Source: Clostridia bacterium (lineage in GTDB: Bacteria > Bacillota > Clostridia > Oscillospirales > CAG-272). Taken from it: a stretch of 56,728 bases of DNA. The stretch covers positions 1 to 56,728 of the forward strand of contig CAAEBS010000146.1 in assembly GCA_900754175.1 (NCBI GenBank). Reading direction: 5' to 3'. The position numbers were made by a program, and so were the translations under genes. This document shows positions 32,957 through 35,884 of this stretch, one piece after another. A model generated the notes under the pieces. It made no database searches and had not been told where the DNA came from. It was given only the letters and a program-made list of their open reading frames with translations. Numbering within the stretch: position 1 is the stretch's first letter; each line of letters begins with the position of its first letter.

Positions 32957-33007
32957 AAAAATATTTTTCCAATGGCGACAGCAGTTGTCCTCTTTTCCCT
33001 TTATAAT
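32957..33007 (+). promoter_or_regulatory. Operator/promoter module, copy 3 (upstream of the xhlA-holin operon)
   Basis: AAAAATATTTTTCCAAtggCGACAGCAGTTGTCC, then 11 nt, then TATAAT (33002..33007). ATG 33052 lies 45 nt downstream. Confidence 0.5.
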
Positions 33008-33051
33008 ACAGGTACAGTCAAGCCAAATCTGATCAGAAAGGAGGAAATCTC

Positions 33052-33342
33052 ATGGAAGAAACACAGATCATTCTGGAACGGCACGAGCAACAGCTACGGG
33101 CACTGGAGCGGGATATTTCGGACCTGAAAGCGGTCCAGAGCGAAATCCGCACCATGAACGAAACGCTTGTCACTCTTGCCACCGAGCTGAAACACACCAA
33201 CGAACATCTGGCACGTCATGAAGAAAAAATCGGCGCCATGGAGGATCGTCCCCGGATGCGTCTGCAACAGATTGTGACCGCCATTATCGCCGCCCTTGCG
33301 GGCGGGCTGGTATCGGCTGTGATCGGAATGCTTCTTGCCTGA
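33052..33342 (+). CDS. xhlA: XhlA-like (haemolysin XhlA family) coiled-coil protein with C-terminal TM anchor
   Basis: 96 aa. Coiled coil HEQQLRALERDISDLKAVQSEIRTMNETLVTLATELKHTNEHL, then the TM segment IVTAIIAALAGGLVSAVIGMLLA. RBS AAAGGAGGA. Sits in the typical position before a holin. Confidence 0.7.
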   Translation: MEETQIILERHEQQLRALERDISDLKAVQSEIRTMNETLVTLATELKHTNEHLARHEEKIGAMEDRPRMRLQQIVTAIIAALAGGLVSAVIGMLLA

Positions 33343-33353
33343 GGAAAGACGAT

Positions 33354-33641
33354 ATGGACTTTTACGAATTCATCAAGCCCGAGCTTCTCATCCTCATCCC
33401 GGTCCTGTATTTTGTCGGGATCGGACTGAAGAAAAGCAAGCTCCCCGACTACCGTATTCCCCTGTTGCTGGGAGCGTTCTCCGTCCTGCTGTGCGCCGCA
33501 TGGGTGATCGCCACAAGCGACATTTCAGGCGCCCGTGACGTTGCCTGTGCGCTGTTCATCGCCGTTACGCAGGGGATCCTTACGGCAGGCGCCAGCGTTT
33601 ATATTCATCAGCTCTCCGTTCAATTCAAAAAGAAAAATTAA
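33354..33641 (+). CDS. Phage holin family protein (Hol44 / holin_5_2-like)
   Basis: 95 aa, 3 TM segments. N-terminus FIKPELLILIPVLYFVGIGLKKSK and TQGILTAGASVY match the clostridial phage holin family as I remember it. Confidence 0.7.
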   Translation: MDFYEFIKPELLILIPVLYFVGIGLKKSKLPDYRIPLLLGAFSVLLCAAWVIATSDISGARDVACALFIAVTQGILTAGASVYIHQLSVQFKKKN

Positions 33642-33659
33642 GAAAGAAGGAATTTTATC

Positions 33660-34730
33660 ATGCCAAATCCGATTCTCATTTTGACCGCACTCCTGAGCAA
33701 CATCATCTGCGTCTGGTCGGTCCTGCTGATGCGCCGTGAGGAACACGGCACGTCCCGCAAATATTACTTTCTGCTTCTGTCGGGGATCCCGGCAGGCGCT
33801 GTTTTCGCTCTCCTGTTCCACCCTCTCACCCTGCCGGACATTCTTCTGTCCGCCCTGACGGGCGGTGCGATCGGAGAGCTGCTGACCGTATTTTTTCTCA
33901 CCGTCCGACAGACCTGCCCCAGGGAAGCCCCCCTCAGCTGTTACGACGACGGCTCCCCGGGAAGATTTTTCATCACGGGGGACAAGCACCGGCGGTTTGA
34001 CCGGGTAAAGGAATTCTGCCGTGAGGTGAACACCCGCCCGAAAGACGTTCTCATCATCCTCGGCGACACCGGTTTCAATTACTACGACGACAAGCGGGAC
34101 GACGAGCTGAAAAAAGAGATCTCCCAGCTTCCCGTCACGCTTTTCTGCCTGCACGGCAACAAGGAAAACCGCCCGCAGAACGTGGGAACCTACGGAATCC
34201 GGGACTTTTGCGGCGGAAAGGTTTATTACGAGCCGAAATACCCGAATCTTCTCTTTGCAATCGACGGTTGTATCTACACCTTTGAGGGCAGGAAATACAT
34301 GGTGGTCGGCGGGGCACACAGCGTGGACAAACTGCGCTGTCTGGAAGAGGGGACCCCGTTCTGGCAGGATGAAATGCCCGACGACGCCACCAAGGAAAAG
34401 GTGGAAGAGGGGCTGAAAAAGGAGGGCAACAAAATTTACGGGATGCTGACGCACACCTGCCCGATCGACTATCTCCCCACCGAAACCTTTCTCTCCACCC
34501 GGCAAAACGCAACCATCCGGCGAAAGCCGAGGAAAGCAAAGTCGAAAAAGCTTTTCCGACCCGATATCGACCGTTCCACCGAAATATGGCTTGGCGAGGT
34601 GGAAAAGAAGCTGGATTATGAGATCTGGTTCTGCGGTCACTATCACGTCGATAAGCCGATCGACAAAATCTGCATGATGCACCGGAAAATCCGTCCTCTG
34701 CACCTGCCCCCGTCCGGTGAAGCGTCATGA
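33660..34730 (+). CDS. Membrane-anchored calcineurin-like metallophosphoesterase
   Basis: 356 aa. About 3 N-terminal TM helices, then MPE motifs ITGDKHRRFD, IILGDTGFN, LHGNKE, GGAHS, THTCP, GHYHVD. Confidence 0.8.
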   Translation: MPNPILILTALLSNIICVWSVLLMRREEHGTSRKYYFLLLSGIPAGAVFALLFHPLTLPDILLSALTGGAIGELLTVFFLTVRQTCPREAPLSCYDDGSPGRFFITGDKHRRFDRVKEFCREVNTRPKDVLIILGDTGFNYYDDKRDDELKKEISQLPVTLFCLHGNKENRPQNVGTYGIRDFCGGKVYYEPKYPNLLFAIDGCIYTFEGRKYMVVGGAHSVDKLRCLEEGTPFWQDEMPDDATKEKVEEGLKKEGNKIYGMLTHTCPIDYLPTETFLSTRQNATIRRKPRKAKSKKLFRPDIDRSTEIWLGEVEKKLDYEIWFCGHYHVDKPIDKICMMHRKIRPLHLPPSGEAS

Positions 34731-35842
34731 CCCTGCTCTATGCCCTCCTGTCCCCCTTTTCCCTGCTCTTTCTCATGATTGCCGTGGGAGGTCTCATCGG
34801 GCGGATCCGGGTCCGCCGGTTCTCCCTCGGCATTGCCGGGGTCCTCTTTGCGGCGCTTCTGACCGGCTTTGTCCTGCAACGCACGCTTCCCGACGGGTGC
34901 CGGGAGCTTCTGGACGACATCCAAAGCACCATGAAGATCTTTTCAAGGCTCGGCACCTCGGTATTCGTCTCGGTCATCGGGATCCGGACCGGCGCTTCGC
35001 TTAAAAACGATTCGGCAAACGCTCTGTTTTCCTTTCTGACCGGGGGTGCCATGAGTCTCTGCGCCATAGCGATCATGAAGCTTCTTGCAACGCTGGACAA
35101 AACGATCAGCGCCTCGACCTTTGCGGGCATCCTCTGCGGCGCTCTCACCAGCACGCCGGGGCTGTCCGGGGTCTGCGAGCTGGAGGGCGTCCACGTGGGG
35201 GACGCCGTATGGGGCTACGGGTGCGCCTATCTGCCGGGGGTACTGCTTGCGCTTTTCTCCGTCCGTCTTCTGACCCGCAAAGCGCCCGTTTGCCCCGTCC
35301 CGGTACCTGTAAAGGCTTCGGCGACAGGCGGCATTTTTCCGGAGGTTCTGCTGATCTGCATCACAGCGCTTATGGGCAATCTTATCGGAAGTCTCACCGT
35401 CCCCTTTGCGGCAGTGTCGCTCGGATGCTCTGCCGGCACTCTGCTGACCGGCTTGCTCCTGGGCGCTATTGTCACGAAAAAGCCGGGGCGTTTCCCGCTT
35501 TCCCCGGGGGTGCTGAACGCCTGCGGAAACTGCGGGCTTGCCGTTTTCTTTGTCGGAACTGGGTACTCCGCCGGCATACAGGCGGTGAATTTCAATCCCC
35601 GGATGCTTCTGTACGGCGTCCTCATCAGCCTTGGCGCCATTCTGACCGGGGTGATTTTATCCCGTCTGGTCTTTGCCCGCCGGTGTCTGAACGCCGGGTG
35701 CGTGGTCGCCGGGGGAATGACCAGCAGTCCGGCATACGGCATGATAAGCCGTCAGGTTCCCGCCGACGTTACGCATCATTTCTCCTTTGCCTACTTCGGC
35801 GCCCTGCTGTTCCTGATCCTTGCCGTCCCCGCCCTTGTCTGA
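34727..35842 (+). CDS. AspT/YidE/YbjL-family (Asp-Al_Ex repeat) transporter without TrkA_C domains
   Basis: 371 aa, polytopic. N-terminus LLFLMIAVGGLIGRIRVRRFSLGIAGVLFAALLTGFVL is typical of this family. Its ATG overlaps the MPE stop (ATGA). Confidence 0.78.
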   Translation: MTLLYALLSPFSLLFLMIAVGGLIGRIRVRRFSLGIAGVLFAALLTGFVLQRTLPDGCRELLDDIQSTMKIFSRLGTSVFVSVIGIRTGASLKNDSANALFSFLTGGAMSLCAIAIMKLLATLDKTISASTFAGILCGALTSTPGLSGVCELEGVHVGDAVWGYGCAYLPGVLLALFSVRLLTRKAPVCPVPVPVKASATGGIFPEVLLICITALMGNLIGSLTVPFAAVSLGCSAGTLLTGLLLGAIVTKKPGRFPLSPGVLNACGNCGLAVFFVGTGYSAGIQAVNFNPRMLLYGVLISLGAILTGVILSRLVFARRCLNAGCVVAGGMTSSPAYGMISRQVPADVTHHFSFAYFGALLFLILAVPALV

Positions 35843-35847
35843 AACGG

Positions 35848-35884
35848 CTTGAGCCGGGGCACTGTCGTGCCCCGGCTCAAGTTT
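35848..35884. terminator. Strong bidirectional terminator hairpin at the border of the accessory region
   Basis: 15-bp stem cttgagccggggcac (35848..35862) / gtgccccggctcaag (35867..35881), 4-nt loop, then TTT. Lies between the convergent stops at 35842 (+) and 35930 (-). Confidence 0.75.

Follow-up and report, generated by a model that had tools for sequence, protein, structure and literature searches.

A chromosomal XhlA-holin cassette with a membrane-anchored phosphoesterase and a short permease in gut Clostridia, a candidate module for toxin release

Type 10 secretion is known from several bacteria, with ChiWXYZ of Serratia and TtsA of Salmonella among the examples. In systems of this type, holin/endolysin cassettes were co-opted for the release of proteins, such as the Tc toxin of Yersinia entomophaga (PMC10847048, PMC9527704). 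The Clostridioides difficile pathogenicity locus (PaLoc) carries the holin TcdE, the endolysin remnant TcdL and the regulator TcdR (PMC3369941, PMC6200909, PMC11344133). A cassette of the PBSX type, represented by xhlA-xhlB-xlyA of Bacillus subtilis, has an amidase gene directly after the holin gene and is located at the end of a prophage or phage-like element. Here we describe a cassette of four genes, for an XhlA-like protein, a Hol44-family holin, a membrane-anchored metallophosphoesterase (MPE) and a short AAE-family permease. It was found in a 56,728-nt contig (CAAEBS010000146.1) of a Clostridia bacterium (GenBank assembly GCA_900754175.1); this whole stretch of DNA is called the window below.

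We consider it fairly probable that the cassette is the arm of a toxin regulon that opens the envelope, and that it serves as a toxin-release module similar to type 10 secretion systems. We arrived at this reading because the promoter of the cassette is shared with genes for putative wall hydrolases and for large toxins made without a signal peptide. As in the type 10 systems, a holin outside any prophage is co-regulated with signal-less cargo, here through the promoter shared with a unit of a glycoside hydrolase (GH) and a Big_2-repeat protein and with an RHS unit. As for the PBSX type, the window has neither an amidase gene directly after the holin gene nor a prophage end at this location. 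To our knowledge, the export of very large signal-less toxins by Gram-positive gut commensals is largely unexplained; the cassette would provide a concrete candidate route that recurs in many genomes.

The relatives of the locus came from several scans, in which labels starting with G stand for genomes of relatives and labels starting with L for individual loci. A search within the same family covered 150 genomes and was the source of G075. A holin-seeded scan, with one genome per species, produced 229 related stretches, of which the best 80 loci were read; all 80 belong to metagenome-assembled genomes of gut or rumen Clostridia. The contigs of the relatives are short, which limits what flanks of 10 kb can show, and some of the gene counts were restricted to the 56 of the 80 loci with 4 kb or more of sequence downstream.

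In the cassette promoter, the palindrome CGACAGCAGTTGTCC occupies the place of the -35 box. The earlier note had counted this palindrome as the third copy of an operator, and we found it again in front of two other units of the window (Table 1) as well as twice on another contig of the source genome, C73. The region of the cassette promoter and the region 26189-26275, upstream of the GH gene, are 72% identical over 87 nt. On contig C73 (~2841-10254, minus strand) the two copies precede a 375-aa open reading frame (ORF) and a 1999-aa RHS-like protein that has no signal peptide; a 207-aa ORF comes next. We described the promoter by the pattern GAC[AG]-N5-[CT]GTC, 12 nt, TAnnnT and scanned it in the 1.08 Mb of the 80 related loci and in shuffled sequences. 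There were 98 sites in the loci compared to 0.4 in the shuffles. The genes downstream of the 98 sites were xhlA (48), GH (14), MPE (6), HTH (6), RHS (2), Big_2 (1) and permease (1). Under a strict pattern, 47 of 72 relatives had the palindrome, the 12-nt spacer and the -10 box in front of xhlA, and the distance from the palindrome to the -10 box was constant at 12 nt. When the MPE gene was several kb away from the holin gene, it had its own promoter copy in front.

An HTH_11 regulator is a candidate for the protein that binds the palindrome. In about 35 of the 80 loci, the gene just upstream of xhlA encodes an orthologue of the regulator at 25182-25523. In the window, the block of the GH, Big_2 and lipoprotein genes has been inserted between this regulator and xhlA, with a duplication of the promoter. 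The paralogous regulator in Table 1 heads an operon of enzyme genes (19179-24060). A common promoter and a conserved neighbourhood across genera support a suggestion of the earlier note, that the cassette could be an arm of a larger system.

Neither product of the sister unit, the Rv2525c-like GH (PF08924, 2e-9; solved relative 1sfs, 5e-14) and the Big_2-repeat protein, has a signal peptide. The GH-Big_2 pair directly adjoins xhlA-holin in G125, L056, L062, L089, L090 and L113; for example, the gene order in G125 is glycosidase, Big_2 protein, xhlA, holin, permease. In G140, a Big_2 gene and three genes of leucine-rich repeat (LRR) lipoproteins are positioned ahead of xhlA-holin. Genes that the window has dispersed over 18.8-36 kb are in this way neighbours elsewhere. 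Giant RHS genes were present within 10 kb of the cassette in 26 of the 80 loci, and most of the nearby RHS proteins, as well as the Big_2 proteins, start without a signal peptide. At their C-termini the Big_2 proteins are not alike: those of L056 and L067 resemble lipases, and fusions to RHS occur in L059, L089 and L113. Such variation is the pattern of polymorphic toxins.

We made several additional observations on this block. The Big_2 protein of the window has a C-terminal region of ~260 aa without a family match and with one hydrophobic segment (residues ~608-626 of the listed ORF), while its homologues carry alpha/beta-hydrolase (lipase-like) domains or RHS repeats at the C-terminus. Three lipoprotein genes, two of them of the BspA-type LRR kind, are located on the minus strand at 29372-32954. 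The lipoprotein genes have near-identical TTTACA-17-TATAAT promoters, with positions 31111-31083 and 32954-32926. LRR lipoproteins were seen again beside the GH-Big_2 pair in G125, G100, G140 and L074, and a possible function for them is immunity against the Big_2 toxins.

The four ORFs of the cassette are present on the plus strand as the earlier note had claimed. Only 11 nt separate xhlA from the holin gene and 18 nt the holin gene from that of the MPE, and the MPE stop overlaps with the permease start in ATGA at 34727-34730. This overlap was kept in 16 of 18 MPE-permease pairs, which suggests translational coupling of the two genes. Because of the short gaps, the 4-nt overlap, the one promoter and the one terminator region, the four genes are most likely one operon, of phage ancestry and now chromosomal. 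The only RNA runs returned by a search for transcripts were libraries from wastewater, in which contigs of read size fall within the MPE gene and are silent on co-transcription; the locus is present in DNA metagenomes.

The protein of the first gene is a distant XhlA-like protein. Its match to Pfam PF10779 (18.8 bits, E = 0.0019) was below the cutoff of 34.7, and its match to the PHROG 'hemolysin' family phrog_937 had an E-value of 1e-8. Among 30 XhlA-like orthologues, 17 matched PF10779 at E<=0.01 (best 8.9e-7), and this was the top family by tally. The build of the protein, a coiled coil with a C-terminal anchor, and its position appear to fit XhlA. The holin assignment of the earlier note was borne out by PF16079 (Phage_holin_5_2/Hol44, holin superfamily V; 1e-22, 80.6 bits, cutoff 29.2) and by the holin family phrog_1129 (1e-17); this Hol44 holin is a single copy in the source genome. 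The transporter was likewise correctly recognized as being of the AspT/YidE type. It matched PF06826 (Asp-Al_Ex) in two stretches with 3e-32 and the YidE_YbjL_dupl model TIGR01625 with 2.4e-24 (85.9 vs cutoff 71.95). The score against the AspT equivalog was 55 bits, far under the cutoff of 547. With 371 aa compared to ~560 aa of the full-length AAE architecture, the permease had no central TrkA_C domains in the domain scan.

The single strong terminator of the earlier note turned out to be two tandem hairpins (-56 kcal/mol together, z = -6.9), which the cassette shares with a convergent gene and whose U-tracts are weak. The strength of the stem was confirmed, with a perfect 17-bp stem in the first hairpin (35846-35882), but the tail of this hairpin is only UUU; the second hairpin (35898-35921) is followed by a T-run. 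We did not accept the hairpin at 35.85 kb as a classical intrinsic terminator, because its U-tract is weak in spite of the very strong stem. The Rfam scan of the whole window did not reveal an RNA family.

Table 1. Positions in the window of the cassette, its promoter and the related units
Feature	Position	Strand	Details
XhlA-like protein, 96 aa	33052..33342	+	N-terminal coiled coil, C-terminal transmembrane (TM) segment ~69-87
Hol44-family holin, 95 aa	33354..33641	+	three hydrophobic segments, KKKN tail
Membrane-anchored MPE, 356 aa	33660..34730	+	3 TM, GNKE, basic loop 286-298
Short AAE-family (AspT/YidE/YbjL-type) permease, 371 aa	34727..35842	+	two Asp-Al_Ex repeats
Two tandem hairpins	35846..35921		between the cassette and a convergent 996-aa gene
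Cassette promoter	32952..33007	+	AAAATATTTTTCC; palindrome CGACAGCAGTTGTCC 32976-32990, 12 nt, TATAAT 33002-33007
Sister unit with the same promoter (palindrome 26243-26257)	26189..29324	+	GH 26339-27148, Big_2 protein 27177-29324
HTH_11 regulator, 113 aa from internal ATG	25182..25523	+	orthologue upstream of xhlA in relatives
Third promoter copy and paralogous HTH_11 regulator	18759..19182	+	GGACAGCCGTTGTCC at 18759-18773; regulator 18817-19182

The arrangement is not unique to the strain. The full order xhlA-holin-MPE-permease was found in at least 13 other genomes of gut or rumen Clostridia, and its variants in dozens more. In G075, which belongs to a different genus, the same four genes are in the same order, with proteins 66-75% identical and with unrelated flanking genes. 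The exact order of the window was seen again in L048-L053, L064, L072, L074, L088 and L111. The xhlA gene was directly upstream of the holin gene in 73 of the 80 cellular loci; in the 56 loci with sufficient downstream sequence the counts were 53 for xhlA, 24 for amidase, 27 for MPE and 25 for permease. The MPE gene occurred without the permease gene in 11 loci and the permease gene without the MPE gene in nine. The proteins of the cassette are 55-85% identical across many genera, and the reading frames are all intact. Two variants were noticed in passing: in G165 (G165:C58:37399-38486) the permease is split in two ORFs, possibly by a frameshift, and in L100 (10001-10693) the order is inverted, with holin before xhlA. 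Full-text searches of the literature did not find a description of this particular cassette.

The flanks of the related loci are chromosomal and varied. In the window, the flanks carry genes for regulators, enzymes, lipoproteins (LRR) and sugar metabolism or utilisation, and no phage structural genes were found near the cassette. As a control we used 80 phage contigs from IMG/VR whose holins share 46-64% identity with that of the cassette. Neither MPE nor permease was found in any of them, and this XhlA was present in only two; one of these, a fragment of 4 kb, has HTH-xhlA-holin-amidase in the order of the chromosomal loci. Because the phage contigs with related holins have neither gene, MPE and permease appear to be cellular accessory genes specific to the cassette. 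The idea of a domesticated holin, raised by the earlier note, has thus held well for this non-prophage module.

On the other hand, we could not uphold the view that the MPE had taken the position of the endolysin. In 37 of the 80 loci a gene of an Amidase_2 endolysin (~358 aa) directly follows the holin gene, starting 6-7 nt past it, and the MPE and/or permease genes often come next. Therefore, the fullest form is xhlA-holin-amidase-MPE-permease; it is a PBSX-like core plus two extras, and we take it as the ancestral order. In the tree made from XhlA and holin, the window belongs to a clade with support 98/81, in which 13 of the 17 rows are 'MPE-direct' and none has the amidase. The amidase-bearing forms occupy the rest of the tree. 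No amidase homologue was found in the source genome, which is 89% complete. Since the window sits in this well-supported amidase-less clade, the MPE is not a replacement of the amidase, which was deleted in the clade.

We also considered the amidase and the Rv2525c-like glycosidase as mutually exclusive substitutes and rejected this, as both are present after the holin gene in L056, L062, L089, L090 and L113. Among 15 holin-positive genomes, seven had only the GH, four only the amidase, one had both and three had neither, which is suggestive of exclusion. Because of the co-occurrence in the five loci, a substitution of one enzyme by the other is something that we only infer.

The MPE matched Metallophos PF00149 (2.6e-9, 38.2 bits, cutoff 21.5) and phrog_1649 (1e-17). 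Its AlphaFold2 (AF2) model shows the MPE fold with a predicted local distance difference test (pLDDT) score of 76 for the whole protein and of more than 85 for the core. The anchor of three TM segments, proposed earlier, is visible in the model as N-terminal helices at 4-27, 34-53 and 58-85. The claim that all metal-binding motifs are present was right for the ligands (D108, H110, D136, N167, H220, H265, H327 and H329), which are invariant in 21 homologues, but not for the catalytic histidine, which the MPE superfamily has at the motif III position. Here motif III is GNKE instead of GNH[DE], and K168 is invariant in the 21 cassette homologues; the soluble MPE paralogues retain GNHE. The anchors of the cassette clade consist of either one helix or three; hardly any tail precedes them at the N-terminus, and a stretch of basic residues comes after the final helix. 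Under the positive-inside rule, this arrangement predicts a catalytic domain on the cytoplasmic side.

The membrane-anchored MPE clade appears to be specific to the cassette. Among 400 sampled genomes from the order, where loci of ~3.7 kb were read, we observed two kinds of MPE, membrane-anchored (at least 53% identity) and soluble with GNHE (39-50%). Three of the four membrane-anchored MPE genes were beside cassette genes, and the fourth (G349) had an amidase gene ~10 kb away on the same contig; the soluble paralogues were in variable contexts. An MPE-seeded scan of metagenome contigs gave nine matches with at least 60% identity and with sequence upstream of the MPE gene. Seven of these had xhlA and/or holin genes upstream, some of them also the amidase; one short contig had only the amidase, and one partial MPE match was without any cassette gene. 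Conversely, xhlA or holin genes were beside none of 68 soluble paralogues in the metagenome scan. These paralogues (contigs L244-L311, ~235 aa, GNHE, 43-51% identical) are very common in the human gut. No conserved partner was found beside them, their contexts being mobile-element-like, and therefore they give no hint of function.

The Foldseek search with the MPE model found only the generic fold (Dbr1, SbcD/Mre11, LpxH, PptH and lambda phosphatase, TM-scores 0.3-0.5) and therefore gives no clue to the substrate. Searches of PDB sequences gave no match for either the MPE or the permease, and no defence-system model of PADLOC was matched by them. Within the toxin-release reading, the two proteins perhaps act on a step at the membrane or envelope, such as the timing or extent of the breach or the supply of a precursor; we propose this tentatively. 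A more specific role, which we regard as unlikely, would make the MPE, with or without the permease, a lysis or release effector at the inner membrane face that cleaves a lipid-linked envelope precursor or an anionic membrane lipid at a phosphodiester or pyrophosphate bond. Such an effector would make the wall or membrane weaker from the inside. In concept it would resemble the 'protein antibiotics' that small lytic phages produce, except that it would be enzymatic and host-domesticated. It would also explain why the clade lost the amidase yet kept the cassette.

For the toxin-release module as a whole, we propose the following course of events. The HTH_11 regulator would act at the palindrome that stands in for the -35 box, and the palindrome promoter would co-induce the signal-less Big_2 and RHS toxins, the signal-less Rv2525c-like GH and the cassette. 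The XhlA-like protein and the Hol44 holin would permeabilise the cytoplasmic membrane, and a hydrolase would reach the wall; this would be the Amidase_2 endolysin in most relatives and only the Rv2525c-like enzyme in the lineage of the window. The toxins would then exit either upon lysis of the producer or via a localised breach. Type 10 secretion systems and TcdE of C. difficile follow the same logic (PMC10847048, PMC9527704, PMC3369941, PMC6200909, PMC11344133). Sequence alone is compatible with lytic as well as with non-lytic release.

Several observations weigh against this proposal. The window's own RHS protein (2205 aa, 524-7141) has a signal peptide. The closest solved relative of the Rv2525c-like protein, 1sfs, is uncharacterised, and its peptidoglycan hydrolase activity is putative. 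In three of the 15 holin-positive genomes neither the amidase nor the GH was present. The change of histidine to lysine in motif III could mean an altered or weak catalysis by the MPE, and the proposed roles of the MPE and the permease come from association.

The strongest competitor, still unlikely, is a module of programmed lysis with another purpose, such as the release of DNA or public goods or a suicide that aborts phage infection, with the toxins being mere neighbours in an island. It would account for the 31 of 56 loci in which no RHS or Big_2 gene was detected over 10 kb, although this absence is weak evidence because the contigs are short. The N-terminus of the HTH_11 regulator fits the WYL-regulator model of PADLOC (5e-12) and a dTMP-kinase-like gene weakly matches defence candidates, but no PADLOC model was matched by the MPE or the permease. 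Similarly, lexA adjoins the HTH-xhlA unit in the window and in L048, L049 and L066, yet a canonical LexA box was not found near these promoters. The same promoter drives the GH/Big_2 and RHS genes in the source genome and in others, and the signal-less cargo requires an exit route.

The lexA gene itself was inspected as well. The LexA homologue encoded at 24237-24854 is the only one of the genome (TIGR00498, 111.1 vs cutoff 110.95), and its gene is preceded by a sigma-70 promoter of consensus type. Downstream come a 69-aa ORF of a CxxC...CxxC zinc ribbon (~24870-25076) and then a terminator-like hairpin with a T-run (25108-25158), which abuts the ribosome-binding site of the HTH_11 gene. In the three other loci with the lexA-HTH-xhlA order the LexA proteins are 76-81% identical. 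Direct SOS control was considered and is unsupported, because no canonical LexA (Cheo) box was found near the lexA, HTH, GH and xhlA promoters; the window had fewer matches than the shuffles.

Quite unlikely in our judgement is the export of a small molecule, in which the permease would export the product of the operon of nucleoside triphosphate (NTP)-transferase, kinase, acyl carrier protein (ACP), ligase and CYTH genes, the MPE would take off a protecting group (phosphate or nucleotidyl), and the holin would be incidental or a channel. The enzyme operon does share the promoter with the cassette, and it is directly beside xhlA-holin(-permease) in G100, G115, L069, L079, L081, L093, L121 and L125. 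For example, the NTP-transferase/kinase/ACP/ligase operon of G100 runs straight into xhlA-holin-permease, and the order in L125 is the CYTH gene, MPE, permease, xhlA. However, a comparison across the 15 holin-positive genomes showed independence: the operon was present with the permease in five, the operon only in five, the permease only in three and neither in two. The operon is absent from G075 and G165, which possess both the MPE and the permease, each of the two genes also occurs alone (the 11 and nine loci above), and the catalytic domain of the MPE is predicted to be cytoplasmic, not extracellular. With the MPE and permease independent of the operon, we abandoned the proposal of the earlier note of an MPE substrate made by the operon at 18.8-24 kb; the only constant partner of the MPE and permease across the 15 genomes was xhlA-holin.

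Finally, a decaying prophage remnant without a present function, with the MPE and permease as unrelated downstream genes, would fit the phage type of the holin, XhlA, amidase and MPE families (PHROG) and the missing amidase of the window, but it is very improbable in view of the intact frames with proteins 55-85% identical across many genera, the invariant catalytic residues, the promoter kept with the fixed 12-nt spacing, the preserved translational coupling, the membrane-anchored MPE clade tied to the cassette context and the phage structural genes not found nearby.

Compared with the described systems, the cassette is closest to type 10 secretion in having a phage-derived holin and a putative wall hydrolase in the chromosome, outside a prophage, co-regulated with large signal-less cargo that includes RHS/Tc-type toxins (PMC10847048, PMC9527704). 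It differs in the host, which is Gram-positive and therefore has no spanin, and in the presence of an XhlA-like partner. Unlike the type 10 systems, the lineage of the window is without a dedicated endolysin, with only the Rv2525c-like glycosidase left in the regulon. The membrane MPE and the AAE permease are extra, and the types of the promoter and the regulator are different.

With the PaLoc of C. difficile the cassette shares a holin among the genes of huge signal-less toxins in a Clostridia chromosome, a degenerate (TcdL) or missing (window) endolysin and a dedicated transcription factor. Conversely, the holin of the cassette is of the Hol44 family and comes with XhlA, the cargo is RHS/Big_2 rather than glucosylating toxins, the proposed regulator is an HTH_11 protein at a palindrome and not a sigma factor of the TcdR type, and the MPE and permease are present. 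The PBSX module of B. subtilis is similar in the order of XhlA-like, holin and amidase genes, which 37 of the 80 relatives have. Unlike PBSX, there are no genes of a prophage or of phage-like particles around the cassette, the amidase is absent from the clade of the window, the XhlA match is distant and under the Pfam cutoff, and the MPE and permease are appended.

Neither an MPE with an active-site lysine nor a truncated AAE permease has a counterpart in the known holin systems. The function of these proteins could reveal a new control or execution of the envelope breach and would be the first for both forms. With PHROG 1649 and the MPE superfamily (Dbr1, Mre11/SbcD, LpxH, PptH and lambda phosphatase) the MPE shares the fold and the metal-binding residues, and its soluble paralogues are 39-51% identical and located in variable, mobile-element-like contexts. 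Unlike the rest of the superfamily, the cassette clade has one or three N-terminal TM helices, an invariant lysine in motif III and a conserved basic loop, and it is tied to xhlA-holin.

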